From: Gammaproteobacteria bacterium
GTDB lineage: Bacteria; Pseudomonadota; Gammaproteobacteria; Pseudomonadales; Azotimanducaceae
Direction of reading: 5' to 3'
Length of the DNA stretch: 64,000 nucleotides
NCBI GenBank assembly: GCA_038104735.1
Contig: JAYOBI010000007.1
Span: forward strand, 9,780 to 73,779
Below are positions 1-16,680 of the stretch, piece after piece. How positions within the stretch are numbered: position 1 is the stretch's first letter; each line of letters begins with the position of its first letter. The translations under genes were made by a program, and so were the position numbers. The notes below the pieces were generated by a model. That model had not been told where the DNA came from and ran no database searches. It was given only the letters and a program-made list of their open reading frames with translations.

Positions 1-18
1 CAGGACAAGGATGAAAAC

Positions 19-1950
19 ATGCTGCAACAACTAAGAGATCAAACCCAATCCACAGGTTTCAAAATACTGGTGGTGGCGATTATTTTGGTACTGACGTTGT
101 TTGGCTTTGGCGCGACGAACATCTTTCTAGGCTCCACACCGAGTATCGCCGAAGTGGGGGATGTTGCCATTACGGAAGGCGTGCTATCGGTTGAGACTGA
201 GCGTGAGCGCCGGCGTTTACTATCGCAAATGGGTCCTGAGTTTGATCCCAATGATATCGACCGGTTGGAGCTGCAAAACTACGCCTTAGAGCAACTGATT
301 AATCGCCAGGTGCTGTATCAGGCTGCCGGATCCCTGGGAATCAGCCTGTCTGAGAACGCGGTTAACCAACGGTTGCTCGAGAGCCCAATGTATCAAGTTG
401 CGGGCCAGTTCAACGAGGCAGTATACCGACAACAACTCCAGTTGATGGGATTCACGCCAGTGCAGTTTGTCGCCGAGGTCCGGCAGGGCCTTGGCTCAGA
501 GCTGTTGCGAGCAGGGGTTGCCAACACCAGCTTTACCGCGGATTGGGAAATCGCCAGCGCTACCGCGCTGTTAAACCAACGCCGGGATATGGCATTTCTG
601 AGTTTGGAAATCGCCGACTACCTACCGCAGGTAGAGGTAACCGACGATGACCTGCAACTGCGTTACGAAGAGGATCAGAGCGCTTACCTCACTGAGGAGC
701 GCGTGGACGTTGAATGGGTTGAACTGACCTTAGCGTCCCTTGAAGAGAAGGTGGCAATCGACGATAGCGAAGAAACGCTGCGTCAAATCTACGAGCAGGA
801 TATAGCGGCTCGTGGGGATTCTGCGCAGCGTGATTCTGACCACATTCTGGTATTGGTCGATGAGGGCACCGATGAGGCGACGGCCTTAGCAAAAATACGC
901 GATGCAGCCCAGCGCTTGGCCGCAGGAGAAGACTTTGCTGCCTTGGCCCGAGAGATCTCTGAGGATCCCGGGTCAGCAGAGAATGGCGGAAATCTAGGCC
1001 CGGTAACCAAGGGCGCGTTCGATCAGGCGTTCGAGGACGCCTTATGGGCGCTAAGCACGCCTGGCGAAGTGTCTGAACCTGTGCGCACGGAGTTCGGCTA
1101 CCACCTGATTCGCCTCAAAGAAATAAGCGAGGCCGAGGTGCCAACCTTTGAAGCAGAAAGGGCGGGCATTCTCGCGAATCTTCGTGCGGAAGCGGCCCTG
1201 GAGATTTTTGATGCACGAATCGATGAGTTAGAGCAGGGTGCTTTTGAAGAACGATTCGGTCTTGCCCAAACAGCTGACGATTTGGCGTTGCAGATTCAGC
1301 AAACTCAAGGGGTCACCCAGGCCGGCGCGCCAACCTCTGGTGAAGGGCTCTCCACAGTTGCAGGGATATTCGACAATCCGGCAGTGATCGAAGCATTGTT
1401 TTCGCCGGAGGGCATCGACGGGGAGAACAGTCCGGTGCTGCGATTGAGTGACGATCGGGCGGTAGTTGTTCGCGCGTCCAGCCATTACCCTGCAACTCAG
1501 CTCGCCTTTGCCGACGTGAAGGACCAGATCGCCGAGCAGCTGCGGCTGGAGTCTGCCCAAGGCCTCATCGAAGCGGACAAGAATCAGGCTCTTGAGCAGC
1601 TGTTGGATGGTGCGTCGGTGAGCGATGTCGCGAACCAGCTCGGTAAGCGGTGGAATCGGCGAGACATGATTGCTCGTAATCAGGTTGATTTGGCGCCTGC
1701 AGCAGTTTTAGCCAGTGCCTTCGCGCTACCAAGGCCTTCGGCGGGCGGTAAAAGCGTGGACGCCACGGTAACCGAAACGGGTAGTGCTCTGGTCGTGGTA
1801 ACCAAGGTTGTGGCTGGCGACGTTAGTGCAACCCAAGACAACGTCGTGGCTCAGCTCGGGCAGCAGATTCAGGCTCGTGACCAACAGCTGGAATTTGCCG
1901 CGTTTTTTGCTGCAGCGGAAGAGGCCGTGGGAGTCACTCGGCCTCAGTAA
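19..1950 (+). CDS. ppiD: Periplasmic folding chaperone PpiD (SurA_N + parvulin PPIase)
   Basis: N-terminal TM anchor, SurA-like N domain, parvulin motifs (SHIL-like DHIL, FAALAREISEDPGSAENGGNLG, VRTEFGYHLI); 643 aa. Confidence 0.92.
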   Translation: MLQQLRDQTQSTGFKILVVAIILVLTLFGFGATNIFLGSTPSIAEVGDVAITEGVLSVETERERRRLLSQMGPEFDPNDIDRLELQNYALEQLINRQVLYQAAGSLGISLSENAVNQRLLESPMYQVAGQFNEAVYRQQLQLMGFTPVQFVAEVRQGLGSELLRAGVANTSFTADWEIASATALLNQRRDMAFLSLEIADYLPQVEVTDDDLQLRYEEDQSAYLTEERVDVEWVELTLASLEEKVAIDDSEETLRQIYEQDIAARGDSAQRDSDHILVLVDEGTDEATALAKIRDAAQRLAAGEDFAALAREISEDPGSAENGGNLGPVTKGAFDQAFEDALWALSTPGEVSEPVRTEFGYHLIRLKEISEAEVPTFEAERAGILANLRAEAALEIFDARIDELEQGAFEERFGLAQTADDLALQIQQTQGVTQAGAPTSGEGLSTVAGIFDNPAVIEALFSPEGIDGENSPVLRLSDDRAVVVRASSHYPATQLAFADVKDQIAEQLRLESAQGLIEADKNQALEQLLDGASVSDVANQLGKRWNRRDMIARNQVDLAPAAVLASAFALPRPSAGGKSVDATVTETGSALVVVTKVVAGDVSATQDNVVAQLGQQIQARDQQLEFAAFFAAAEEAVGVTRPQ

Positions 1951-1997
1951 AGCTGGTTTGTAACAGCGTGGGGGACACACAGCTTATCCCCCACTGT

Positions 1998-3608
1998 TTA
2001 TCCCCCCACAACGTCCACATAAAGAGTCAGGCCTTGACCGGGCTGCAGGTAGCGTTTGGGTTGAAGGTCGTTCCACTCCAGAATATCGCCCACGCTCAAC
2101 CTAAAGCGCTGGGCGATACGGCTCAATGAATCACCACGTCTCACCCGGTAGTTGATTTTACGAATTTTGTTTGGTGGAAGGTCGGTCGCGGCGGGCAGCA
2201 CACCAGTATCCGGTAAGAGGAGGGTGCGCCCTACCCGAAGAACGTCCCTAGGCCCGATCTTGTTTAAACGCACCAAGGTGGCCACGCTAGTGTCCATTCG
2301 TTTGGCAATCAGCCACAGAGAATCACCCTGACGCACCGTATAAGTCGGCAAGTTGGTAGCTGCCGTATTCCGGCCTCTCGCGGATACCGGTACCTGGAGC
2401 GTCTGGCCAATTTGCAGTAGGTCGGTGTCAAGCTGGTTCAGGCGCAGCAGATCTCTTGCGCTGGCGCTGTGCTCCTCGGCCAGTTCGCTTAGCGTGTCTC
2501 CAGAGCGGACAACTATCGTTTTCCAAGCCATCCGCTCTTCTGGCGAAACGCTCTTTAGGCGCGCCATGGCTTCCTGCTCAGCATCATCCAGGGCCGTTAA
2601 CGTGCTGCCTTCCCCAGGGGCAAAAGTGTCTGCTTCTAAATTTTCGGCAGCGTTAGCTTGCCAATCCTTGCTGGTCCATTTTCTTGGCAGGATCAATTGC
2701 AGCGAATCGGATGCGTTCCAGCGAGCCTGTTTCAACGCCGGATTGAACTCATAGATTTGCGCGGCCTCCATGTTTAACGTTTGCGCAAGAACGCTGACGT
2801 CAAAGGCACCGGGTAATGTCAAAACAAGCAAAGGATCTAAATCGTCAACCACTGGCAGCGTAACGCCGAAAGCTTCGGGGTTGGCAACGATGGCGGAAAT
2901 TGCCAATAGCCTAGGCACATAGGCTTGGGTTTCTCTTGGCAAACGCTGGTGAAAGAAATCCTGACTCTTGTTCCGGCGTAAGGCTTTGGCAACGGTGCCA
3001 CCCCCCGCATTGTAGGCAGCCAGGGCAAGCAGCCAGTCGTCAAAACGCCGGTGTAAATCCTCGAGGAAGTCCAGGGCAGCCCCGGTAGAGGCCACGACGT
3101 CGCGTCGGCCGTCGTACTGGGCCGTCATAACCAGTCCATATTGCTGGGCGGTTGGGCGCATGAACTGCCAGAGGCCATTAGCTCCGTAGGGAGAAAACGC
3201 ATAAGGGTCTAAGGCGCTCTCGATAATGGGCAGCAGCGCTAACTCCGCAGGCAAATTCCGAGCATTCACCTGGCTGAGGATATAGGGCAAATAGCGTTGC
3301 ATTCTGGGTCCCAGCCGAACCCAGTATTGGGGATTTTGCTGCAGCCAGCGCAGTTCCTGAGCGACCCGTTTTTCCTCAACACGATGGTTCAGCCTCATAC
3401 CTCGGCGCAGGTTGTGCCAAAGGTCAGCTTGGGCTTGGGAATCTTTCGTGGTGACGCTGGGGGCGTCCACTGCTGCAGGCTGCAATGAATCGCTGTCGGA
3501 TAGATCCGGCGATGGCGCATTGGGCACTGTGCTTTGCACCTGTGCAGTGGAGGTTTGCGCAGCCGGGTCGCGGGCTGTATCTGTTAAACCAGCGCAGCCT
3601 ACATGCAA
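1998..3608 (-). CDS. mltD: Membrane-bound lytic murein transglycosylase D (SLT + 3 LysM)
   Basis: IES catalytic Glu, GLWQFM, AYNAG, RETQAYVP; three LysM repeats (VRSGDTLS, VRQGDSLW, VRRGDSLS). Confidence 0.93.
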   Translation of the reverse strand: MHVGCAGLTDTARDPAAQTSTAQVQSTVPNAPSPDLSDSDSLQPAAVDAPSVTTKDSQAQADLWHNLRRGMRLNHRVEEKRVAQELRWLQQNPQYWVRLGPRMQRYLPYILSQVNARNLPAELALLPIIESALDPYAFSPYGANGLWQFMRPTAQQYGLVMTAQYDGRRDVVASTGAALDFLEDLHRRFDDWLLALAAYNAGGGTVAKALRRNKSQDFFHQRLPRETQAYVPRLLAISAIVANPEAFGVTLPVVDDLDPLLVLTLPGAFDVSVLAQTLNMEAAQIYEFNPALKQARWNASDSLQLILPRKWTSKDWQANAAENLEADTFAPGEGSTLTALDDAEQEAMARLKSVSPEERMAWKTIVVRSGDTLSELAEEHSASARDLLRLNQLDTDLLQIGQTLQVPVSARGRNTAATNLPTYTVRQGDSLWLIAKRMDTSVATLVRLNKIGPRDVLRVGRTLLLPDTGVLPAATDLPPNKIRKINYRVRRGDSLSRIAQRFRLSVGDILEWNDLQPKRYLQPGQGLTLYVDVVGG

Positions 3609-3753
3609 GGCCCCGGCACAGGTTAGCGCCGCTAATCGGACAGTGATTTGGGTAAAACGGTAGCTTACAAAGTTAATGTTGATGTAGCCTTTTGTCTGAA
3701 ATTTCCAAAGCCGCGAATGCTAGCAGCTTCGCGACCGACAGGGTAAGTAGTCT

Positions 3754-4593
3754 ATGACTCCGAACACGCCGCCAGGCGGCCAGAGCAACCTTTGGCGCAG
3801 TACCCTAGGGCACCGCTTGGCGGAACACCAGGCGACCCTATTGCAGCCCCTGCTGCGACGGATGCTTGGGGACGCCGTGCTTTGGATCGGCGAAGAAAAC
3901 ACGATGCCCAATGCCTTGGCCCAGTGCATGGTGAGACTACCGGTATTTGTCACCAACTCCTCCTTGGCGGCACCCAGAGCAGCCGATGCCGTTCAGTGTA
4001 TTCAAGCATCCTGTGACCACCTACCCTTTGCCTCTAACTCTCTGGATGGCGTTGTTCTGCATCACACACTTGAGACTCACGCAGATCCTCGGGCATGTAT
4101 CCGCGAGGTGGAGCGAGTGCTGAAGCCCGGAGGGCGCTTGCTAATCTGTAGTTTCAACCCATTCAGCTTAACGGGATTGCGCGCATGGCTAGCTCGGAGC
4201 AGGGATAACCCGCTGCGCGGACGCCGCTTAATCAGTCCAATCCGTCTTTTAGACTGGCTGGCGCTGCTAAATCTCAGTCTTGACCAGCCCCCTTGCTACA
4301 GGGTCTTGCCGGCACCGTCAGTGCAAAAGTTTCGGCAACGATGGTCCAGGCGAGGCCATACCAGCGTGGGTAAGGTTATGGTTAGGCCCGGGATTTTTTT
4401 AGGTCAATGTTGGAGTAAGGTAGCGCCGCTGTTGATGCCTTTGTTCCGGCAGCTGCCTGTTGGCGGTGTGGTCGTGTTAAGTGCCTATAAGGTTCGCCAA
4501 GGAGGCAAGCTGATCGGCCGCACGGTGCTAACGCAAACGCGCAAGCGTGGATTGGTGTTGACGCCCACGGTCCAATCACGGCGGGACGGCTAG
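3754..4593 (+). CDS. YafS-like class I SAM-dependent methyltransferase
   Basis: HLPFASNSLDGVVLHHTLE...IREVERVLKPGGRLLICSFNP; conserved position upstream of rnhA. Confidence 0.8.
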   Translation: MTPNTPPGGQSNLWRSTLGHRLAEHQATLLQPLLRRMLGDAVLWIGEENTMPNALAQCMVRLPVFVTNSSLAAPRAADAVQCIQASCDHLPFASNSLDGVVLHHTLETHADPRACIREVERVLKPGGRLLICSFNPFSLTGLRAWLARSRDNPLRGRRLISPIRLLDWLALLNLSLDQPPCYRVLPAPSVQKFRQRWSRRGHTSVGKVMVRPGIFLGQCWSKVAPLLMPLFRQLPVGGVVVLSAYKVRQGGKLIGRTVLTQTRKRGLVLTPTVQSRRDG

Positions 4594-4637
4594 CGTGTTG
4601 AAATTGTTTCTTGCTCGGTACAGGAGCTACAAGATTA

Positions 4638-5078
4638 ATGACGATTGAAGTTTTTACTGACGGTGCCTGTCGAGGTAACCCTGGTCCCGGTGGGTGGGCG
4701 GCCTTGGTGCGCAAGGATGGTGCCGAAGAGGTTTTTGCTGGCGCTGAAGGGCAGACAACGAACAACAAAATGGAGTTGATGGCGGCTATTCAGGGATTAG
4801 AGCAGTTAACCCCAAACTCCCAAGTCAGCTTAACCACAGACTCGCAGTACGTGCGCCAGGGTATCACCCAGTGGATCCACGGTTGGAAGCGCAATGGGTG
4901 GAAGACCTCCCAGCGACAACCCGTCAAAAATCAGGAGCTCTGGCAACGCCTTGATGCTGCAGTGGCTAAGCTCCAGGTGGAATGGCATTGGGTAAAGGGA
5001 CATAGCGGACACCGAGAAAACGAGTTGGTGGACGAGGCTGCCAACGCGGCAATAGACGCTATGGAAGCGGGCCGATGA
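4638..5078 (+). CDS. rnhA: Ribonuclease HI
   Basis: [37 protein letters not shown] at 4638 chosen over the upstream TTG at 4611. Confidence 0.97.
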
Positions 5079-5794
5079 GGCAAGTGGTGCTTGATACAGA
5101 AACCACTGGCCTCGAGGTGCTGAATGGGCATCGCATCATTGAGATCGGAGCGGTGGAGGTTGTGAATCGGCGCTTAACCGGGCGCACGTTCCACAAGTAC
5201 GTGAATCCAGATCGGGAAATTGATGACGGCGCCAAGGATGTTCACGGCATTACTGAAGCTTTCCTCGCCGACAAACCGCGGTTCGCTGACGTTTGGCCAG
5301 AGCTGGATGCTTTTCTTCGGGGCGCAGAACTGGTTATTCACAACGCACCCTTCGACGTGGCGTTTCTAGATTCAGAAATAGCGCGCTTGAGGCCGGCCTC
5401 TAATCAGTCAGTCCAACGGCTTGAGGATTTCTGTCAGATTACCGACTCATTGGCCATTGCTCGACACAAGCATCCCGGGCAGAAAAACAGCCTAGATGCG
5501 TTATGTCGCCGTTACATGGTTGATAATTCCCAGCGTCAGCTGCACGGCGCCTTGCTGGATGCAGAGATCCTTGCTGACGTTTATCTATTGATGACCGGCG
5601 GCCAGGCCCAGATGTTTTCCGGTGGGTCCTCTCAGGAGGGGGAGGCCGCCGCAGAAACTCAGGAACGCCCTCAAGCAATGGACGTGTCGGGCTTGAAAGT
5701 GATCAGCCCGGTGGCTGAGGAAGTCGAGGCCCATGACGCCATGCTTTTGTTGCTGGATCAGCACAGTGACGGGCAGACGCTATGGCGTCGTTAG
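5075..5794 (+). CDS. dnaQ: DNA polymerase III epsilon subunit
   Basis: [24 protein letters not shown]; ATGA overlap with rnhA. Confidence 0.97.
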
Positions 5795-5907: not shown

Positions 5908-6546
5908 TTACGCTTCTGCACTCTGGATTTTGACCGCCTCAAAGCTACCCTGCTGCAATGCGGCGACAAGGTCTTGCTCATTGGCTATGGGTTGGTCGAA
6001 CCGCGTGCCGCACCGACCAATGTGGCTGACGATGTGCGCGTCGCTACCGCCAATACCTCGGTAGCCTAATGTTTTGGCCATATCGATTGACACTTGGTCC
6101 TCATTGTCGCGGCTGCCGCCATTATAAATTTCGACGATTTCAACGCCTTCAGGTACGCCAAATTCTTCCAGGTGAGCTGACATTCCAACGCGCTTCCTTC
6201 CCGGGTGGCAAGGTACAGCCACGGCGTTGTGGGCTTTGCAGGCAGCAATCACGTCCGCAAGAGCCAAGTGAATATTAGTAAAGTCGAAAGCTTCCTGAAG
6301 TGCCGGAGTAACCCCGAATACCAGGACATGGCCATACTCAGTCTCGACTTCAGCCCCTTTCAGAATTGTTAAGTCAAATTTTTCCCCCAGTTCAGAATAA
6401 TCGGATTCATTATCGAACTGACGATGTTCGGTAAGCACAAAGCCGTCGATAGGAATATTTTTGGCGCTAATCCACTGACAATAGTTTTGTACCTTAGCGC
6501 GACCGTCGTCGGATTTGATGGAGTGAGCGTGTAGATCCAAAATCAT
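5908..6546 (-). CDS. Stand-alone PHP-domain phosphoesterase
   Basis: DLHAHS (HxH), TEH, HP and GGSDAH (DxH) metal-binding motifs. Confidence 0.85.
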   Translation of the reverse strand: MILDLHAHSIKSDDGRAKVQNYCQWISAKNIPIDGFVLTEHRQFDNESDYSELGEKFDLTILKGAEVETEYGHVLVFGVTPALQEAFDFTNIHLALADVIAACKAHNAVAVPCHPGRKRVGMSAHLEEFGVPEGVEIVEIYNGGSRDNEDQVSIDMAKTLGYRGIGGSDAHIVSHIGRCGTRFDQPIANEQDLVAALQQGSFEAVKIQSAEA

Positions 6547-6577
6547 GGAAAGTTCCCCTGAAAATAAAAGTTAGTAG

Positions 6578-7183
6578 CTAGGTGATGGCGGCCCAAAGCG
6601 CTTCGATCTGCTTCACAAGGTGTGCCTGATCGGCGGAATTATCGATAATCTGGCTGGCGTGTTGACGTCGTTGGTCGTTGCTAAGCTGGGCGTCCAGTCG
6701 AGCCTGTACCGCCGCTGGATCCAGATTGTCGCGGGCGCAGGCTCGTTCAATAGCAACGGTCGGGTCCACCATGGTTACCCACACCTGGTCAACCAGGTCC
6801 AGCCATTGGGCCTCGATTAATACGGCTGCCTCTAAAACCACGGGCCTTGTAGCGTCGGCTTTCAGGGCCGCGGTAATTTCGGCTTCAGCCATCCGACGAA
6901 TGGCTGGCCAGACGATGTCGGTGAGTTGTTTCAATCCGGCCTCATTGCCGAACACCTTGCTGCCCAGAACTCGACGATCGATTTCGCCATCGTCGCCCAC
7001 TACGTCAGTGCCAAAAGTGGTTACCACTTGATTGAAGGCGTCACTGCCCTTGAGATAGGCGGAATGGCCAAGCTTGTCCGCGTCGATCACGTAAGCGCCG
7101 AGAGAGCCTAGTGTTTTTGCTACGGTAGATTTGCCCGATGCGATACCACCTGTAAGACCAATGATCAAAACGACGCTCCCCAA
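6578..7183 (-). CDS. coaE: Dephospho-CoA kinase (atypical, COASY-like)
   Basis: P-loop [26 protein letters not shown], RDNL...QLS; TTG start. Confidence 0.9.
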   Translation of the reverse strand: [201 protein letters not shown]

Positions 7184-7240: not shown

Positions 7241-7579
7241 ATGAATCGTTTTCAACCAACTATCAACATCACCTTCGTCCAACCTGATGGCACTAGGGAA
7301 GTGCACGCCGGGCCGATCGGGGATCATGTAATGGATGTGGCTGTGGATAACGGCGTGCCGGGCATCATTGGGCAGTGTGGAGGCGGCTGCACCTGCTGTA
7401 CCTGCCACGTTTGGGTTGATCCCCAATGGCGGGATCTGGCCGGGCAGCCTCACGGCGACGAAGCGGAGTTGCTAACCTACGCTGCGGGGGTATCCCCGCG
7501 GAGCCGTCTAGCCTGTCAGATGCGTTTGACCGAGGATTTGGATGGCTTAGTGGTAGAGATACCTTTTGAGGCCGGCTAG
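7241..7579 (+). CDS. 2Fe-2S ferredoxin (adrenodoxin/putidaredoxin type)
   Basis: CGGGCTCCTCHV ... SRLACQ. Confidence 0.9.
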   Translation: MNRFQPTINITFVQPDGTREVHAGPIGDHVMDVAVDNGVPGIIGQCGGGCTCCTCHVWVDPQWRDLAGQPHGDEAELLTYAAGVSPRSRLACQMRLTEDLDGLVVEIPFEAG

Positions 7580-8842: not shown

Positions 8843-10342
8843 CTACTCCATGACGGGAATATTGAAGGCTGCGCTCTGGGTCTCACCATCCGGCCAACGC
8901 TGGGTTACGGTCTTGGTTTGGGTGTAAAAACGCACGCCCTCCATCCCGTGTTGATTTGCATCACCGAAAGCCGAGCGTTTCCAGCCGCCAAAGCTGTGAT
9001 AGGCCACGGGTACTGGAATCGGAACGTTAATGCCGACCATGCCCACGTTCACGCGTTGGGCAAATTCCCGGGCAGCACCACCGCTGCGAGTGAAAATGGC
9101 GACACCGTTGCCGTACTGATGTTTGGAGGGTAGCTCCAAGGCCCCCTCAAAAGAATCCTCTCGCAACACTTGAAGAACCGGGCCAAAAATCTCGTCCTGA
9201 TAGCTACGCATGCTTGGTTTTACGCGATCGAATAGGGTGGGTCCGACGTAGAAGCCGTTTTCATAGCCCTGGAGCGAGAAGTTCCGGCCGTCGACGACCA
9301 GTTCTGCGCCTTCATCTACACCCATTTGAATGTAGTCTTCCACGCGCTGTTTATGTGCTGCGGTAACGACGGGGCCATAGTCCGCGGCGGGATCTGTGGA
9401 AATGCCGACGTTGAGCTTGCCTAACTCACCGGTCATCGCCTCCACGAAACGGTCACCGGTTTCGTCGCCGACGGCAACCACCGTTGATAGGGCCATACAG
9501 CGCTCACCGGCGGAGCCGTAAGCTGCTCCGGTGATGTCCTGTACCGCCTGCTGCATGTCCGCATCTGGCAGAATGATGCCGTGATTTTTTGCACCGCCCA
9601 TGGCTTGGACTCGCTTACCCTGGACCGCGCAGCCTTGATAGACGTAGTGGGCAATGTCAGAGGAGCCGACAAAACTAACCGCGCGAATATCCGGGTGATT
9701 GATAATGCCGTCTACGGCCTCTTTGTCACCGTTAACGACGTTAAGCACGCCAGCGGGTGCACCGGCCTCCATCATGAGCTCAGCCAAGCGCATGGGTACA
9801 CCGGGATCTTTCTCCGAAGGTTTCAGGACGAAGGTGCAGCCGGTTGCAATGGCGACACCGAACATCCACATAGGAATCATCGCGGGGAAATTGAAAGGAG
9901 TGATGCCCGCTGCGACGCCAACGGGTTGACGCATGCTATACACATCGATGCCTGGTCCTGCCCCCGGGGTGTACTCGCCTTTGAGCAAATGGGGAACGCC
10001 ACAAGCGAACTCGATGACATCCAGCCCCCGTTGAATATCGCCCAGAGAATCTGCCAACACCTTGCCATGTTCCTCGGACAAAATTTGCGCTAACTCGTTG
10101 GCATTGGCTTCCACCAGGCTTTTGAAGTTGAACAGGACCCGCGCACGACGTTGAGGATTCATGGCGGACCATTCCGGCAGCGCCGCTTTTGCGGCCGTAA
10201 CAGCGTCGTTGAGTTCGTCGCCGGTGGCCAGCATTACCGACCCTGAAACTTCTCCCGTGCTTGGGTTGAAAATATCGCTGCTGCGTCCGGAGGCGCCTTG
10301 GACAACCTGCCCATTGATGAAGTGTTGATAAGATTTGCTCAT
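8843..10342 (-). CDS. mmsA: CoA-acylating (methyl)malonate-semialdehyde dehydrogenase
   Basis: GITPFNFPAMIP, KPSEKDP, GGAKNH, GERCMA, EIFGPV, VGINVPIPVP. ATG at 10342 chosen. Confidence 0.93.
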   Translation of the reverse strand: MSKSYQHFINGQVVQGASGRSSDIFNPSTGEVSGSVMLATGDELNDAVTAAKAALPEWSAMNPQRRARVLFNFKSLVEANANELAQILSEEHGKVLADSLGDIQRGLDVIEFACGVPHLLKGEYTPGAGPGIDVYSMRQPVGVAAGITPFNFPAMIPMWMFGVAIATGCTFVLKPSEKDPGVPMRLAELMMEAGAPAGVLNVVNGDKEAVDGIINHPDIRAVSFVGSSDIAHYVYQGCAVQGKRVQAMGGAKNHGIILPDADMQQAVQDITGAAYGSAGERCMALSTVVAVGDETGDRFVEAMTGELGKLNVGISTDPAADYGPVVTAAHKQRVEDYIQMGVDEGAELVVDGRNFSLQGYENGFYVGPTLFDRVKPSMRSYQDEIFGPVLQVLREDSFEGALELPSKHQYGNGVAIFTRSGGAAREFAQRVNVGMVGINVPIPVPVAYHSFGGWKRSAFGDANQHGMEGVRFYTQTKTVTQRWPDGETQSAAFNIPVME

Positions 10343-10456
10343 AGTCCCCTCGTGTTCCAGCGGTTTCAAACGGTAATCAAAAGTTAGCGGCAAACAGTTT
10401 ATGCTTAGATCACCTGCAAATGCATCTTGACTGCCAAAAACTGCTGGGGAGGGTTT

Positions 10457-11431
10457 GTGAACAAGACAAAACTTCGGGTAGCGCTAACGCGACGATGGCC
10501 CGAACCCGTTGAGCAGGCCCTGAGTCAGGATTTTGATCTGCGAGTTATGCCGGATAACCGCGCTATGAGCGCCGATGAACTGAGTGATGCCTTGGCCTGG
10601 GCCGACGTGCTTTGCCCAACGGTAACCGATGCTATCACCGCTGAACTGCTGGCCGCGCCTGCTGTGAACGCCAAACTACTGGCGAATTTCGGTGTGGGTT
10701 TTAATCACATTGATGTGGCTGCTGCGAGCCAAGCGGGGATTTGCGTCACCAACACCCCCGGTGTGCTGACCGATGCGACCGCCGAGATAGCCCTGACGCT
10801 ACTGCTCGCCAGCGCTCGTCGAGCCAGTGAAGGCGAGCGTTTAGTGCGCTCTGGGGCATGGTCAGGCTGGCACCCAACTCACATGCTATCGACCCAGGTG
10901 ACGGGTAAAACTCTTGGGGTCATCGGGCTCGGTCGTATCGGCCTAGCGTTTGCTCGCCAGGCCCACTTTGGGCTGGGGATGCAGGTGCTTTATCACGGAC
11001 CCAATCCGCGAAGCGCCGAAGTGCTCGACGGGCTGCCAGCACAATATTGCGGTTTAGACGAACTGCTCGATCAGTCCGACTTCGTCAGCCTGCATTGTCC
11101 AGCGACACCCCAGACCCGTCATCTGATCAACGGCGACACCCTGAAATTGATGAAGCCTGATGCACACCTCATCAATACTGCTCGGGGGGATATCGTAAAC
11201 GAGGCCCATTTGGTTACGGCGCTGGCTGAGGGGGTGATTGCCGGCGCTGGGTTAGACGTATACGAGCGAGAGCCTGAATTGACACCGGGCCTGGCACAGC
11301 TGGACAACGTAGTCCTGCTGCCGCATATGGGCAGCGGTACTACTCAAACTCGCATAGCCATGGGTGAGTGCGCTATGGACAACATACGCGCATTTGCCGC
11401 AGGTGAGTCGCTGCCGAATCAAGTAGGCTAG
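10457..11431 (+). CDS. D-isomer 2-hydroxyacid dehydrogenase (glyoxylate/hydroxypyruvate reductase-like)
   Basis: TNTPGVLTDATAE, GLGRIG, INTARG, GLDVYERE, PHMGS; GTG at 10457 follows GGAGG. Confidence 0.9.
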   Translation: MNKTKLRVALTRRWPEPVEQALSQDFDLRVMPDNRAMSADELSDALAWADVLCPTVTDAITAELLAAPAVNAKLLANFGVGFNHIDVAAASQAGICVTNTPGVLTDATAEIALTLLLASARRASEGERLVRSGAWSGWHPTHMLSTQVTGKTLGVIGLGRIGLAFARQAHFGLGMQVLYHGPNPRSAEVLDGLPAQYCGLDELLDQSDFVSLHCPATPQTRHLINGDTLKLMKPDAHLINTARGDIVNEAHLVTALAEGVIAGAGLDVYEREPELTPGLAQLDNVVLLPHMGSGTTQTRIAMGECAMDNIRAFAAGESLPNQVG

Positions 11432-11459
11432 AGCTGCAGAGCAAAGGGAGAGACAAAAC

Positions 11460-11939
11460 ATGGGCACGATAGTGCAACTTAAAGAAGCTGTTATCGAAGA
11501 CTATGGTCGCCGGCCCTTGTGGATGAGCCTGATTTTTTATTTCTGCGTATATATGACGTTCATCTACATGCCCTTTGATATGTTTGTGAAGCCCGTTGCC
11601 GAAGACCATGAAATTTGGTTCGGATTTTCTTTAACGGGTTGGTGGGCAAAGGCGACGGAACCTCTGCACTGGCTGATTTACGGTTTTGGCGCCTATGGAT
11701 TTCGTCATATGAAACCATGGATGTGGCCGTGGGCAGGGGTTTACGCCGCTCAGGTTGTGATTGCCATGGTGGTGTGGAATTTGGTGAATGAGCGAGGCGG
11801 CGGACTCTCTGCAGGTATCATTGCGGGGCTGATTTTCGCCGTGCCCATGGCTGCGCTGTTGGGCGCACGCAGCACCTTTCAACCGGCGTCGCAAAACCAT
11901 GTATCCACAGCAAATCACCCAGGAGGATCCAATGAGTGA
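11460..11939 (+). CDS. Hypothetical 4-TM, Trp-rich membrane protein
   Basis: 159 aa with several hydrophobic helices; sits between the hydroxyacid dehydrogenase and the DDN-family gene. Confidence 0.65.
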   Translation: MGTIVQLKEAVIEDYGRRPLWMSLIFYFCVYMTFIYMPFDMFVKPVAEDHEIWFGFSLTGWWAKATEPLHWLIYGFGAYGFRHMKPWMWPWAGVYAAQVVIAMVVWNLVNERGGGLSAGIIAGLIFAVPMAALLGARSTFQPASQNHVSTANHPGGSNE

Positions 11940-12354
11940 AGACACAACGCTGCCAGATTGGGCGGCAGATCACATGCAACGATATCTGCAGACCGATGGC
12001 GAAGACGGACACATTTGGCGCGGGGTACCAACGCTGCTGCTCACCACCACCGGACGCACCAGCGGCAAACCACGAATGTTGCCCCTAATTTACGGCAAGG
12101 ATGGGGATGATCATATTATCGTCGCCTCAAAAGGTGGGCATGCCGAGCACCCCGCTTGGTATACGAACATAGCAGCCAATGGCGCCGTTCAGGTTCAGGT
12201 TGCTGCAGATAAGTTCGCCGCCGCTGCGGAACTCGTGCAGGGAGCAGAACGTAGTCGTATTTGGCAGGTCATGGCGGAGATTTGGCCCCCCTACAATGAG
12301 TATCAAGAGAAAACCGATCGCGAGATTCCTGTGGTAAGACTGCGACGACAATAA
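11932..12354 (+). CDS. Deazaflavin (F420H2)-dependent oxidoreductase, Ddn/FDOR-A family
   Basis: LLLTTTGRTSGKPR, VASKGG...P.WY.N, YQEKTDREIPVV; AGGAGG RBS at 11921. Confidence 0.88.
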   Translation: MSEDTTLPDWAADHMQRYLQTDGEDGHIWRGVPTLLLTTTGRTSGKPRMLPLIYGKDGDDHIIVASKGGHAEHPAWYTNIAANGAVQVQVAADKFAAAAELVQGAERSRIWQVMAEIWPPYNEYQEKTDREIPVVRLRRQ

Positions 12355-12361
12355 CCGCTGC

Positions 12362-12715
12362 TTAGGGTTCTTTCTGATTCCAAAGAATCGTTCCCACAAT
12401 GCATAGCACCACGACTTGCACCGCTGCGGCCCACAGCGGTGCGCCCACAAGAGGCGTAATGATCGCCAGAACCAGCATCGACGCGGTTGCTATCACTTTG
12501 CTGCGCCGCGATATGGCCCGGTGGGTTTGCCAGTCGTGAATCGGCGGACCTAGGGTCGGGTGATTCAATAGCCAGCTGTGGATCTTTTCTGATCCGCGGC
12601 TAAAGCACACCGCAGCCAGCAGCAAAAAGGGCGTGGTCGGCAGCAGCGGTAAGGCAATGCCGAGTACGCCCAAACCCACGAACAGCCAGCCAAAACCGAT
12701 CCACAAAAATCGCAA
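12362..12715 (-). CDS. YbaN/DUF454 inner membrane protein
   Basis: GIALPLLPTTPFLLLAAVCFSRGS...WLLNHPTLGP. Confidence 0.88.
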   Translation of the reverse strand: MRFLWIGFGWLFVGLGVLGIALPLLPTTPFLLLAAVCFSRGSEKIHSWLLNHPTLGPPIHDWQTHRAISRRSKVIATASMLVLAIITPLVGAPLWAAAVQVVVLCIVGTILWNQKEP

Positions 12716-13033
12716 CGTCGTGACCCTTTCTCAGTATCTTGTCAGCACGAGACTAGCAGGGTTGGCCGCGGTTATTGAGCTTGCTTTTCACTGGCTGGTA
12801 AAGACGCCGTTTTTACTCAAGTACCGCCAAAGCGAAAGAAGCGCGCCGAGTTAATGACAGATGAGGTTTTCTTAGTTGCACCCTCGCTGGGGAGGACGTA
12901 ACGTTCGAGTGCTGTGTTTGGAGGGGTGCAGTGTAGATTCGAAAAACCAACGACCGTTGGGGCCCCTATTTTCACCGCGCGCTCGCCGGCATCACCAAAG
13001 GCCAGCGTTACCATTGAAAAACAGGAGGCCAAT

Positions 13034-14305
13034 ATGAATTTCGATATCCCCCAAGACCTGCAAGATTACTTGAACGAACTCGACGAGTTTATCGAGAACA
13101 CCATCAAGCCCCTGGAGAACGCGGATGACAACATTCGTTTCTTTGATCATCGACGGGAGGATGCGCGGACGGACTGGGAGCGGGGTGGATTGCCCAACGA
13201 GGAGTGGGAGGCCCTGCTGGCCAAAGCGAAACGCCTGGCTGACGAAGCAGGCCACTATCGTTATCCCTTGCCAAAGGAATACGGAGGCAAAGAAGGCACT
13301 AACTTGGGCATGGCCATCATTCGCGAGCATTTCGCAGCGATGGGTCTTGGTCTGCACAACGATCTACAGAATGAACATTCCATCGTTGGCAACAACGTCG
13401 GTCTGTTGTTAATGATCGAATACGGTACCGATGAGCAAAAAGCCGAATGGATTGATGATCTTGCTGAGGGCAGAGCGGGGTTTGCTTTCGGTATTACTGA
13501 GCCCGATCACGGTTCTGATGCCACTCACATGGAGACTACGGCGGTTCGCGACGGCGATGAATGGATTATCAATGGCTCCAAAACTTGGAACACCGGCATC
13601 CACAAAGCCAAGCACGATTTGATTTTCGCCCGTACCAGCGGCAAGGCCGGCGATGGCGACGGTATCACCGCTTTTTTGACGCCTACCAATAGTGAGGGGT
13701 TCAAGGTCGAGGAAATGCTTTGGACGTTCAATATGCCCACCGATCACGGCACCATCACCATGAAAGACGTCCGGGTGCCCCACGAATCAATTTTTGGCGG
13801 CGAAGGCCGGGGGCTCGGTGTAGTACAGCACTTTTTCAACGAAAACCGCATTCGTCAGGCCGCATCGTCTCTGGGTGCCGCTCAGTTTTGCCTCAACGAA
13901 TCCATCGAATACGCCAAGCATCGCGCGCCTTTCGGCAAGCCGCTATCCACCAATCAGGGCATCCAGTTCCCGCTAGTAGAACTGCAGACCCAATGCGAGA
14001 TGCTGCGAGCCCTCATTCACAAGACCGCATGGCAAATGGATACCTATGGTGCGTTTTCGGTGTCCGACAAGGTATCCATGTGCAACTACTGGGCCAATCG
14101 CCTTTGCTGCGAGGCCGCGGATCGAGCAATGCAGGTCCACGGCGGCTTGGGGTACAGCCGTCACAAGCCGTTTGAGCATATTTACCGCCATCACCGGCGT
14201 TACCGGATTACCGAAGGTGCAGAAGAAATTCAAATGCGTCGGGTCGCAGGGTATCTCTTTGGGTTCATGGGCCAGCGCGCACCAAAGGGTGTCAAGGAGG
14301 GCTAG
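13034..14305 (+). CDS. Acyl-CoA dehydrogenase
   Basis: ITEPDHGSDA, NGSKTWNT, FGKPL, QVHGGLG, RITEGA; AGGAGG RBS before ATG at 13034. Confidence 0.92.
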   Translation: MNFDIPQDLQDYLNELDEFIENTIKPLENADDNIRFFDHRREDARTDWERGGLPNEEWEALLAKAKRLADEAGHYRYPLPKEYGGKEGTNLGMAIIREHFAAMGLGLHNDLQNEHSIVGNNVGLLLMIEYGTDEQKAEWIDDLAEGRAGFAFGITEPDHGSDATHMETTAVRDGDEWIINGSKTWNTGIHKAKHDLIFARTSGKAGDGDGITAFLTPTNSEGFKVEEMLWTFNMPTDHGTITMKDVRVPHESIFGGEGRGLGVVQHFFNENRIRQAASSLGAAQFCLNESIEYAKHRAPFGKPLSTNQGIQFPLVELQTQCEMLRALIHKTAWQMDTYGAFSVSDKVSMCNYWANRLCCEAADRAMQVHGGLGYSRHKPFEHIYRHHRRYRITEGAEEIQMRRVAGYLFGFMGQRAPKGVKEG

Positions 14306-14307
14306 CC

Positions 14308-15744
14308 TTGAGCCTATCGCATAGCGAACTGACCGAGGCTCTGGAAGCCCTGCTGCCCCGCGTGATTGATGATTGCCAGCAGCTGCTGCGGCTGGAGCGG
14401 TTGTCCGGCGGGGCGAGCCAAGAGACCTACAGGATTGTTATTCAGGGGGTCCACGGAGAACGCCTGCTTGCCATGCGCCGGGCCGCAGGTGGCGAAGAAG
14501 GGGAAATCACCGCTCAGCATCCTGGACTGGCGGTGGAGGCGAAATTGATGCAGGTGGCCAGAGACCACGGTGTGCCTGAACCCGAGGTGTTTCACGTTTT
14601 GCAACCTGAAGACGGGATCGGCGCTGGTTTCATCATGGAGTGGCTGGAAGGCGAGGCCTTAGGGGCTCGCATCGTCAAAGCCCCAGAACTAGCGCAAATT
14701 CGTCCTCATCTGGCGCGAATGTTCGGAGAAACCCTGGCGCGCATCCACGGCATTGACCTTGAAGTTAGCGGCTTAAAGCAGCACCTCCAGCACTTGAGCC
14801 CTGAGGATTATGTGCAACAAACCTGGGAGCGTTACCAGGCTTATGAGACTCCCCAGCCAATGATTGATTTCACTGCTCGCTGGCTGTTGGACCACTTGCC
14901 AAAGAGCTACACGCCGAGCCTGGTGCACAACGACTATCGCAATGGCAACGTCATGGTAGACGCCTCGGGGATGGTGGCGGTATTGGACTGGGAGGTAGCC
15001 CACATCGGCGATCCCATGCGTGATTTGGGCTGGATGTTGTGTCACTCCTGGCGTTTCGGCCGTGCTCATTTACCCGTGGGTGGTTTTGGTCAAGCGGAGG
15101 ATTTTTTCGCCGGTTACGAATCCGTATCAGGCCAACCAGTGGACCGAGAAGCGGTGAAGTTTTGGCAGGTTTTCGGGTCGTTCTGGTGGGCGGTTGGGTG
15201 CCTGGGCATGGCTGAGCACTTCCGTAATGGGCCAGATCAGAGCGTGGAACGGCCCGGCATTGGCCGGCGCTCCTCCGAGTGCCAAGTGGATTGCGTTAAT
15301 CTGCTGATTCCTGGCCCCGTAGTATTAGTGTCAGGTGATGACGATATAAGCCTTGTTGATATGCCTCGGGCTGATGAACTATTGAGCAGCGTGGTGACAT
15401 TCCTCCGCGAGCAGGTGATGAGCGAAACCCAGGGGCGTACGCAGTTCTTAGCGCGGGTAGCCAGCAACTCCCTGGAAATCGTAGAGCGTGAGATGGTCTT
15501 AGGCAGCGCTGCGGCTAAGGCTGAAATCCAGCGCTTGCGAGCCTTGTGCAATAGCGATGCAGACCAACTGCAAAGCCTTCGCTGGTCGTTGGTAAAACAG
15601 CTGCGTGACGGCAGCATGGCGCTGGAGACGCCGGGTTTGGCAGACCATCTGCGTGGGGCCATCGTCAATCAAATTGCCATTGACCAGCCCCGATACCCCG
15701 GTTTGGCCACCGCACTAGAGGCCGCTTCAGCGCTAACCTCGTAA
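14308..15744 (+). CDS. APH-family phosphotransferase fused to a DUF6285/LvaB-like C-terminal domain
   Basis: LSGGASQET, VHNDYRNGN (HxDxxxxN), VLDWE, GDPMRDLGW; C-terminal helical domain from 15361 (MPRADELL...IAIDQPRY). Confidence 0.85.
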   Translation: MSLSHSELTEALEALLPRVIDDCQQLLRLERLSGGASQETYRIVIQGVHGERLLAMRRAAGGEEGEITAQHPGLAVEAKLMQVARDHGVPEPEVFHVLQPEDGIGAGFIMEWLEGEALGARIVKAPELAQIRPHLARMFGETLARIHGIDLEVSGLKQHLQHLSPEDYVQQTWERYQAYETPQPMIDFTARWLLDHLPKSYTPSLVHNDYRNGNVMVDASGMVAVLDWEVAHIGDPMRDLGWMLCHSWRFGRAHLPVGGFGQAEDFFAGYESVSGQPVDREAVKFWQVFGSFWWAVGCLGMAEHFRNGPDQSVERPGIGRRSSECQVDCVNLLIPGPVVLVSGDDDISLVDMPRADELLSSVVTFLREQVMSETQGRTQFLARVASNSLEIVEREMVLGSAAAKAEIQRLRALCNSDADQLQSLRWSLVKQLRDGSMALETPGLADHLRGAIVNQIAIDQPRYPGLATALEAASALTS

Positions 15745-15876
15745 GCCTCAGCAATTGGCCGAGAACGCTCCGCTCCTGCATCGAGGCAAAACGCCCATAG
15801 AAACAGCGAAGCCGAAAAGGCGACAGACAAGACTACAAACAAGACCACAAACAGATAACAGATAGAGGGACATAGG

Positions 15877-16680
15877 ATGGGAGCACTATCAGACAAAGTA
15901 GCAGTAATTACCGGCGGTATTAGCGGTCTGGGACGAGCCAGCGCCCTTCGCTATGCGGCAGAAGGGGCGCAAGTTGTTGTGGCAGACATCAACGCTGAGC
16001 GCGGCGCCAAAGCTGCAGCGGAAATGTCGGCAGAGGGGGGGCACGTCGAGTTCGTTCAGGTAGATGTGACCTCACAAGCCAGTCAGGAGGCGCTGTTTGC
16101 CGAGGTAGTAGAGCGGTTCGGGCGGGTGGACACCGTATTGGCGGCGGCGGGGGTTTCATCCTCTGGGTACGTCAGCGGTGAGGTTAGTGAAGTCGAAGCC
16201 GACCCCGAGGAGCGTATGTTTCACAATCGCGAATTAGCGGATTGGGAAAAGGTCATGGCGGTGAACGTAACGGGCGTGATGCTGACCAATCAGATCGCAA
16301 TCCGGCACATGTTGGCAAAGCAGACCCACGGTACCATTGTGAACATTGCCTCCATCGCCGGGCGCCGTCCTTTGCCTGGGGCCTCGGACTACTGCGTCTC
16401 TAAAGCCGCGGTCATCATGCTGACTCAGACTGTTGCTGCTGAGTACAGCACCAGCAACATCCGCGTAAACGCTATCGGTCCGGGTTTTATCGAGACGCCA
16501 ATGACGGCAAATATTCGGCAGTCGCCGGAGTGGATGGAAACGGTTATGTCCATGACGCCTATGCAGCGCATGGGTCAAGCCCACGAAATTGCTAGTACCG
16601 CGTTGTTTTTGGCCAGCGCCGAATCAAGCTACTTCAACGGTCAAACTCTGTTTCCCAATGGGGGCATGTTTGTCGGCTAG
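15877..16680 (+). CDS. Short-chain dehydrogenase/reductase
   Basis: ITGGISGLG, NIAS, YCVSK, NAIGPGFIET. Confidence 0.9.
   Translation: MGALSDKVAVITGGISGLGRASALRYAAEGAQVVVADINAERGAKAAAEMSAEGGHVEFVQVDVTSQASQEALFAEVVERFGRVDTVLAAAGVSSSGYVSGEVSEVEADPEERMFHNRELADWEKVMAVNVTGVMLTNQIAIRHMLAKQTHGTIVNIASIAGRRPLPGASDYCVSKAAVIMLTQTVAAEYSTSNIRVNAIGPGFIETPMTANIRQSPEWMETVMSMTPMQRMGQAHEIASTALFLASAESSYFNGQTLFPNGGMFVG

Follow-up and report, generated by a model that had tools for sequence, protein, structure and literature searches.

Dephospho-CoA kinase (DPCK, or CoaE), which catalyses the final step of CoA synthesis, tends to be regarded as a single uniform family in bacteria. A typical bacterial CoaE has an H-P hinge and a PLLxE motif; the bifunctional CoA synthase of animals (COASY) has a kinase domain with a W-P hinge. 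The roles of the P-loop, the catalytic Asp and the hinge Pro of DPCK have been described (PMC6284149). In the window analysed here (the whole stretch of 64,000 nt, part of a gammaproteobacterial genome of 2.68 Mb in 39 contigs), one reverse-strand reading frame had been predicted to encode a dephospho-CoA kinase that resembles the COASY kinase domain rather than gammaproteobacterial CoaE. We denote this gene coaE2, and examine below where it belongs, where it may have come from, and the phosphoesterase gene that accompanies it.

The longest form of the coaE2 frame spans positions 6578..7183 (-) and encodes 201 aa from TTG 7183; all four protein strings quoted in the original prediction are present in it exactly. 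A second TTG, at 7168, is preceded by a ribosome-binding site (GGGGAG, positions 7181-7176, 7 nt ahead) and gives a product of 196 aa. Close homologues measure 196-198 aa, with 196 aa in most. The placement of the ribosome-binding site and the length of the homologues therefore suggest that the real start is probably TTG 7168.

CoaE2 belongs to the DPCK family along nearly its whole length, with the CoaE profile PF01121 scoring 158.8 bits (cut-off 27) over profile positions 1-177 of 180, and TIGR00152 scoring 158.2 bits (cut-off 65.55). CoaE is the sole Pfam domain found in the protein. The P-loop (G12..G17-K18-S19, preceded by T11) satisfies the GxxxxGK[ST] pattern, D36 within IDADKLGH is the equivalent of the catalytic Asp33 of E. 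coli CoaE, and the hinge residue P93 within IVWP has its E. coli counterpart in Pro90. Residues R147, R151 and R162 are likewise conserved. Across 150 representatives of its subfamily the P-loop, T11, D36 and P93 are conserved at 90% or more, as are W92, P93, A119, A120, E124, A125 and W127. It is quite likely that CoaE2 phosphorylates dephospho-CoA, and we predict it to be an ATP:dephospho-CoA 3'-phosphotransferase in which the P-loop would bind ATP, Asp36 would activate the 3'-OH on the ribose of dephospho-CoA, and the substrates would be enclosed by the Pro93 hinge together with an Arg-rich lid. A role of the locus in defence was considered and set aside, since PADLOC returned nothing for the kinase and weak partial PHP matches for its partner only.

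In a comparison with all PDB chains, CoaE2 matches the mouse bifunctional CoA synthase best (2f6r; 167.5 bits, E 3e-48). Aquifex provides the highest-scoring bacterial CoaE structure (2if2, 102 bits), followed by 1jjv (90 bits) and 1vhl (80 bits), so that no bacterial CoaE exceeds 102 bits. By BLASTP, CoaE2 is 44% identical to the mouse COASY kinase domain over 194 residues (164 bits) and 34% identical to the canonical CoaE of its own genome. The mouse chain carries the corresponding motif AAMLLEAGWQSMVHEVW, and judged from this chain the human COASY motifs that had been cited in support of the prediction were right in substance. At the level of sequence, the resemblance between CoaE2 and COASY is genuine and far beyond chance.

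This resemblance turned out not to be specifically animal-like. CoaE2 has the IVWP hinge and the EAA[VI][LM]xEAxW motif that characterize what we call the COASY-type, or W-P, subfamily, and a DNA-level search with the pattern EAAV[LM][IFL]EAxW found matches in at least 599 prokaryotic species genomes. Among 1.84 billion cluster representatives there are 28,971 CoaE-like matches, of which 352 reach E<=1e-30. The top 150 of these representatives comprise standalone proteins of ~200 aa and PPAT-kinase fusions of 500-580 aa, with the W-P hinge and EAAVLxEAxW common to them. The C-terminal extensions of relatives were also searched for fusions to PHP domains, and none is of this kind; those seen were NUDIX fusions, PPAT fusions and domain-free extensions. 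The named eukaryotic members of the subfamily include a dictyostelid protein and a standalone kinase of Paramoeba.

The bacterial members closest to CoaE2 belong to the Dehalococcoidia (phylum Chloroflexota). When a profile was built without the gammaproteobacterial clade (hereafter the gamma clade), it recovered thousands of proteins, and every named protein in its top 120 matches was from Dehalococcoidia/Chloroflexota. The closer Dehalococcoidia proteins are 51-56% identical to CoaE2 (194-221 bits), against 44% and 164 bits for mouse COASY; one of them (P0371, GCA_041390685.1, annotated 'dephospho-CoA kinase') aligns at 51% identity with zero gaps. In the one Dehalococcoidia genome checked for this, G041, the W-P type is the only CoaE, and a W-P CoaE is found in 91 of the 99 genomes of its order, with 40-58% identity to CoaE2 and up to 221 bits. 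Across a sample of 121 Chloroflexota genomes the W-P hinge at ~145 bits or more occurs only in G041 and G086, and the other Chloroflexota CoaE proteins mostly read IVHP. The W-P signature is thus widespread in one unrelated bacterial lineage, as an objection raised along with the prediction had anticipated, and rare overall, where that objection fails. The best explanation of the likeness to COASY is shared membership of a subfamily, not transfer from animals.

We built a maximum-likelihood tree of CoaE2 and its relatives under LG+C20+F+G4 (PMSF), with 108 rows and an alignment of 201 columns, and a second tree that added 20 sequences from the Dehalococcoidia order. About one-third to one-half of the rows are metagenome proteins; the rows do not extend to DCAKD of eukaryotes, CAB5 of yeast or the DPCK of plants. 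The COASY-type subfamily was recovered as a clade of 90 rows in the first tree (UFBoot/SH-aLRT 98/86) and as a core clade of 81 rows in the second (98/97), with CoaE2 inside it in both cases. As predicted, CoaE2 differs from the ordinary CoaE of Gammaproteobacteria. The gamma clade, with 14 rows in the first tree, received 98/86 there and 98/95 in the second, in which the clade of the Dehalococcoidia order received 99/95 and the H-P-type Chloroflexota proteins formed a grade beneath the subfamily. Gamma and Dehalococcoidia clades were joined at 90/87 in the first tree and at 95/75 in the second.

The eukaryotic bifunctional proteins, which show both PF01467 and PF01121, formed a clade of 22 in the first tree (98/96) and were again a clade in the second (94/97), with the gamma clade outside each time. 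CoaE2 is therefore not nested within COASY, and the interdomain transfer that had been offered as one origin of the gene receives no support from these trees. The other origin offered, a bacterial clade sister to the eukaryotic COASY kinase domain, fared better in part: membership of the same subfamily holds, and the sister position is occupied in the maximum-likelihood trees by Dehalococcoidia instead. A forced grouping of the gamma clade with eukaryotic COASY was nevertheless not rejected by the AU test, in either the first tree (dlnL 3.3, p-AU 0.444) or the second (dlnL 17.1, p-AU 0.267). These single-gene trees, of a short gene with a weak decisive node, favour a Dehalococcoidia affinity of the gamma clade without proving it; published DPCK trees likewise lack deep resolution (PMC6284149).

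The window genome has two CoaE loci. A check for a second, canonical coaE, suggested together with the original prediction, found it on contig 11, between an immediately preceding T2SSF/PilC-like gene and a convergent argJ. Its product scores 216 bits and has the motifs LLHPLI and NPLLLES, in agreement with the H-P and PLLxE described as typical. CoaE2 has neither these motifs nor the pil-coaE location, as had been noted. The presence of a canonical copy at the pilC-like locus means that coaE2 is an extra paralog rather than a relocated housekeeping gene. Two more relatives have two CoaE genes apiece, and nearly all coaE2-bearing genomes of the family also hold the canonical copy, at 30-36% identity. 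That the family has retained both copies throughout speaks against mere redundancy of the second, whose substrate or regulation may differ.

Within the Gammaproteobacteria, coaE2 is concentrated in one family. Among the matches listed, the closest loci belong to the K189A clade, HTCC2089 and Candidatus Azotimanducaceae of the Pseudomonadales, and 20 of 24 relatives within the family HTCC2089 / Ca. Azotimanducaceae carry the gene with 59-94% identity. None of 16 other families of the order has it (0/16). We also searched an evenly drawn sample of 300 gammaproteobacterial genomes from 271 genera, the window genome included, at E<=1e-35; of the 299 other genomes a single one, G365, has coaE2. A 647-aa open frame around the G365 homologue proved to be a high-GC artefact and not a fusion. 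The patchy distribution fits one acquisition close to the root of the family, plus a small number of additional spreads, and does not fit vertical descent.

Directly downstream of coaE2 lies a gene for a PHP-family metal-dependent phosphoesterase of 212 aa (5908..6546, -). The spacer between the two is 31 nt long (6547..6577, -) and contains a ribosome-binding site, GGGGAA, 6 nt before the ATG at 6546; a terminator-like site was sought in this spacer and none was found. The two genes are probably co-transcribed. In the best 80 of at least 599 related loci, the PHP gene lies directly downstream of coaE2 on the same strand in 65, at a distance of 10-111 nt; in 6 it is elsewhere in the locus and in 9 it is unseen, some of these being ended by contig ends. 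Conservation in these 80 loci is 64-98% for the PHP protein and 54-94% for CoaE2. On the other side of coaE2, a 2Fe-2S ferredoxin gene (7241..7579, +; Pfam Fer2 28.4 bits) is divergent from it across a 57-nt gap and occupies the same divergent position in 58 of the same best 80 loci. It is a conserved neighbour of coaE2, and whether it belongs to the module is uncertain.

The co-occurrence of the two genes is nearly complete. In the family of 24, both are present in 20 genomes and neither in 3, the remaining one being a 63%-complete MAG with the PHP gene only; no ortholog of the PHP gene is found in any of the 16 sister families. Three family genomes retain both coaE2 and the PHP gene although the two are unlinked. 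Only 2 of the 300 Gammaproteobacteria have the PHP gene, namely the window genome and G365, the same two that have coaE2, and in G365 the two genes are 11 kb apart. Such joint retention, even when the genes are unlinked, argues for a functional link between them.

The same pairing appears in the Chloroflexota. In the sample of 121 genomes from that phylum, strong PHP orthologs are again limited to G041 (193 bits) and G086 (188 bits), at 44-46% identity, and the next match falls to 77 bits; 89 of 99 genomes of the order of G041 carry the PHP gene. The nearest non-gamma orthologs of the PHP gene lie in the same Dehalococcoidia order, and the two genes thus point independently to one donor lineage. 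In that order the two genes are usually non-adjacent (~300 kb apart in G041); when the PHP gene was sought beside Dehalococcoidia coaE, the neighbours were instead ETF, CbbQ-like AAA, Metallophos and VWA genes. A transfer of the pair in one step therefore needs a linked donor or intermediate. An arrangement of this kind is seen in P0123, basal to the gamma clade and on a 4.1-Mb contig, where the kinase and PHP genes abut, with IS110-family and DDE transposase genes within 4 kb upstream. The pair is thus capable of occurring in a mobile setting.

The PHP assignment of the partner rests on Pfam PHP_C (PF13263, 51.9 bits) and on Pfam PHP (PF02811), the latter at 25.2 bits and so just under its cut-off of 26.4, together with the fold and conserved candidate metal ligands. 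Residues H6, H8, D13, H41, E66, H73, H114 and D169 are invariant among these candidates, and H171 is conserved at 90% or more. The NCBIfam CehA/McbA model scores 69 bits, under its cut-off of 80. A sequence search of the partner against the PDB gave no match. The AlphaFold model (pLDDT 91.9) has as its nearest folds by Foldseek TM0559 (2anu), PsfC (7rty), RNase AM (7ug9/9etk), BAD_1165 (3e0f) and the amidohydrolase 2yb1; TM0559 and BAD_1165 are uncharacterised PHP phosphoesterases, and all of the top 32 matches are PHP phosphoesterases or PHP-bearing DNA polymerase III/PolC chains. The amidohydrolase 2yb1, from Chromobacterium, was crystallised with Mn, AMP and phosphate, and we take it to be the 3',5'-nucleotide bisphosphate phosphatase Cv1693. 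The partner scores 28.8 bits against NF041577 (3',5'-nucleoside bisphosphate phosphatase), far below the cut-off of 400, so that its substrate is a guess. Fold and genomic context suggest that it may act on a 3'-phosphorylated adenine nucleotide, and it would then probably hydrolyse a phosphoester on such a molecule, for example pAp or CoA itself.

Taken together, coaE2 and the PHP gene are most likely a laterally acquired two-gene module, in which the coupling of kinase and PHP enzyme is the new lead. We give a probability of about 0.7 to the reading that CoaE2 is a working COASY-type dephospho-CoA kinase, acquired with the PHP gene from a Dehalococcoidia-like donor and kept beside the native coaE. 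The pair would have entered the ancestor of the marine family HTCC2089 / Ca. Azotimanducaceae (K189A clade of the Pseudomonadales) by lateral transfer. The donor was probably a Dehalococcoidia-like bacterium of the Chloroflexota, both genes being core in one order of that class. In the cell, the two products could form a couple of 3'-phosphate kinase and phosphatase, or a kinase with a partner that clears its by-product. We offer only tentatively, as a possibility we somewhat doubt, the bolder proposal that the W-P kinase and the PHP enzyme are obligate partners, a CoA-related 3'-phosphate couple that is core in the Dehalococcoidia order and has moved as a unit. Such a couple would, for example, set the CoA/dephospho-CoA balance or clear pAp-like products, and, as a corollary, the same Chloroflexota-centred CoaE lineage would be the source of the kinase domain of eukaryotic COASY.

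Other origins of the gene must be weighed against acquisition from a Dehalococcoidia-like donor. A direct link between domains, with the gamma clade either the immediate sister of the eukaryotic COASY kinase domain or itself derived from eukaryotes, would account for mouse COASY being the best PDB match, for the supported subfamily clade that both share, and for the failure of the AU test to reject their grouping. We nevertheless consider it quite improbable: Dehalococcoidia proteins are nearer to CoaE2 in sequence (51-56% against 44%) and are its partners in the maximum-likelihood trees, the gamma clade falls outside the eukaryotic bifunctional clade (98/96), CoaE2 has no PPAT domain, and the nearest non-gamma orthologs of the PHP partner lie in the same Dehalococcoidia order. 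That coaE2 is an ancient gammaproteobacterial paralog, inherited vertically and lost almost everywhere else, could be argued from its prevalence within one family and its occurrence in the distant genome G365. This is very improbable, as it demands a very large number of independent losses: the gene is missing from all 16 sister families and from 298 of the 299 other sampled Gammaproteobacteria, and its nearest relatives belong to another phylum. Least probable, to the point of being negligible, is an artefact, either a mis-binned Chloroflexota contig or an assembly chimera. The 39-contig assembly and the odd labels of MAGs with some related loci (Limisphaerales, Burkholderiales, Alphaproteobacteria) might raise this concern; coaE2 lies, however, 16 kb into a contig of at least 64 kb with even GC (0.53-0.60), relatives show synteny of the adjacent genes rnhA-dnaQ, SDR and ALDH, and in closed chromosomes (4-6 Mb) of relatives the locus occurs along with a canonical coaE. 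Even GC, flanking synteny and these closed chromosomes together mean that the locus is no binning artefact.

A different kind of alternative concerns function only and is compatible with an origin by lateral transfer: in this family CoaE2 may have left CoA synthesis and been neofunctionalised to phosphorylate the 3'-OH of another adenosine nucleotide, such as AMP, ADP or APS, and the PHP enzyme would belong to the same side pathway. The retention of both canonical coaE and coaE2 in nearly all family genomes, over 54-94% divergence, suggests non-redundant roles, the kinase is tightly coupled to a phosphoesterase, and E. coli CoaE is reportedly weakly active on adenosine, AMP and APS. We regard such a change of substrate as unlikely, since the CoA- and ATP-binding residues are conserved and since the W-P type, as the only CoaE found in G041, must make CoA there.

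Genes of the coaE2 type are already annotated as dephospho-CoA kinase in public MAGs. The coupling of a W-P CoaE to a PHP phosphoesterase across two phyla seems, on the other hand, to be undescribed, as does the observation that the closest bacterial relatives of the COASY kinase domain centre on Dehalococcoidia. Our literature searches returned no paper that connects dephospho-CoA kinase either to both COASY and horizontal gene transfer or to the PHP domain, and nothing relevant among papers on dephospho-CoA kinase that mention Chloroflexi. These Dehalococcoidia-centred relatives provide a concrete candidate lineage for a bacterial origin of the COASY kinase domain. The family also illustrates that a W-P CoaE can be added to a genome that already bears coaE and then be kept for long, which implies a non-redundant role. 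The co-travelling PHP phosphoesterase is a testable lead to an undescribed step of CoA or pAp metabolism in abundant marine bacteria; should the coupling reflect only shared ancestry, the finding becomes one of ordinary lateral transfer of a housekeeping paralog.

Compared with the described systems, CoaE2 shares with canonical gammaproteobacterial CoaE (E. coli 1vhl, 1jjv and the contig 11 copy) its family, fold class, P-loop, catalytic Asp and hinge Pro. The canonical proteins differ from it in sequence (34% identity), in having H-P and PLLxE rather than W-P and AAVLxE, and in their pilC-like locus. The PHP partner resembles TrpH/YciV-type PHP enzymes (2yb1, 7ug9/9etk, 2anu) in structure, with a Foldseek probability of 1.00, E 2e-8 to 7e-6 and TM 0.51-0.72. 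The sequences, however, share no more than 15-21% identity, and the partner, with 212 aa, falls short of the 280-287 residues of chains 2yb1, 3e0f and 9etk.

The DPCK domain of mouse COASY (2f6r) has in common with CoaE2 the W-P hinge, the AA(V/M)L(I/L)EAxW motif and 44% identity. COASY, unlike CoaE2, has an N-terminal PPAT domain of ~300-350 aa; the DNA upstream of coaE2 consists of the 57-nt divergent spacer followed by the ferredoxin gene, and CoaE2 branches outside the eukaryotic clade in both trees (98/96 and 94/97). We know of no PHP partner for COASY. The closest likeness is to the Dehalococcoidia CoaE proteins such as P0371, which are also standalone at ~200 aa, have the IVWP hinge and the EAAV(M/L)IEAxW motif, and come from genomes with the same PHP ortholog. 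In these bacteria the enzyme is the only CoaE (G041) and is usually not beside the PHP gene, its neighbours being ETF, CbbQ-like AAA and VWA genes, whereas CoaE2 is a second copy that stands in an operon-like pair with the PHP gene.

In the window, the COASY-type dephospho-CoA kinase gene coaE2, the phosphoesterase gene PHP directly downstream of it and the divergent ferredoxin gene fdx form a core that is, among the matches listed, far more widely kept than a neighbouring arrangement: at 4611-5794 on the plus strand, rnhA, encoding a 155-aa RNase H, and dnaQ, encoding a 239-aa RNase_T exonuclease, overlap by 4 nt, and just a few of the closest relatives share this. Among the surrounding genes at 8843-10393 and 10427-16680 are one that is aldehyde dehydrogenase-like (516 aa) and one for an SDR.

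The pair of coaE2 and PHP also occurs at locus L115 (positions 1-5239), on the 4.1-Mb ENA contig_1; this locus encodes P0123, a protein basal to the gammaproteobacterial clade that contains the window coaE2. There the two genes abut (4609/4610) and are adjoined by a heavy-metal P-type ATPase gene, and no more than 4 kb upstream are genes for two transposases, one of the DDE_Tnp_1_4 type and one of the IS110 family. This proximity to transposase genes suggests that coaE2 and PHP are able to move together as a cassette.

Among the matches listed, coaE2 genes of the same clade, with 54-65% identity, were found on contigs of metagenome-assembled genomes (L032, L066, L073, L087, L088 and L090) labelled as Limisphaerales, Alphaproteobacteria, Rhodospirillaceae, Burkholderiales and Deltaproteobacteria. 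Two of the six, L032 and L088, carry the same PHP gene immediately 3' of coaE2, and L032 has the ferredoxin gene too. These contigs represent either mis-binned sequences or additional transfers.

At the Dehalococcoidia loci L091-L095 and L116-L118, the COASY-type coaE lies within a conserved block ordered Fe-S/CCG oxidoreductase, ETF beta, ETF alpha, coaE, CbbQ-like AAA, large VWA protein; in L091-L095 the VWA gene is preceded by a Metallophos gene. The PHP ortholog in the Dehalococcoidia genome G086 (L110, positions 1492-3076) is followed by two small genes for MaoC/FAS1-like hot-dog dehydratases of the acyl-CoA hydratase type, neighbours that weakly hint at a CoA-thioester context.

The relatives include CoaE-NUDIX fusion proteins of 388-408 aa (P0193, P0216 and P0217), a further physical link of the CoaE kinase family to a nucleotide-diphosphate hydrolase; P0193 comes from G155 (locus L097), a Chloroflexota genome with H-P-type CoaE.

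In both maximum-likelihood trees, the grade directly below the COASY-type subfamily consists of H-P-type Chloroflexota CoaE sequences, and several Chloroflexota clades of the W-P type branch near the base of the subfamily. Tentatively, given the rooting of the trees and the many rows without an organism name, these placements hint at a Chloroflexota-like CoaE lineage as the source of the eukaryotic COASY kinase domain.
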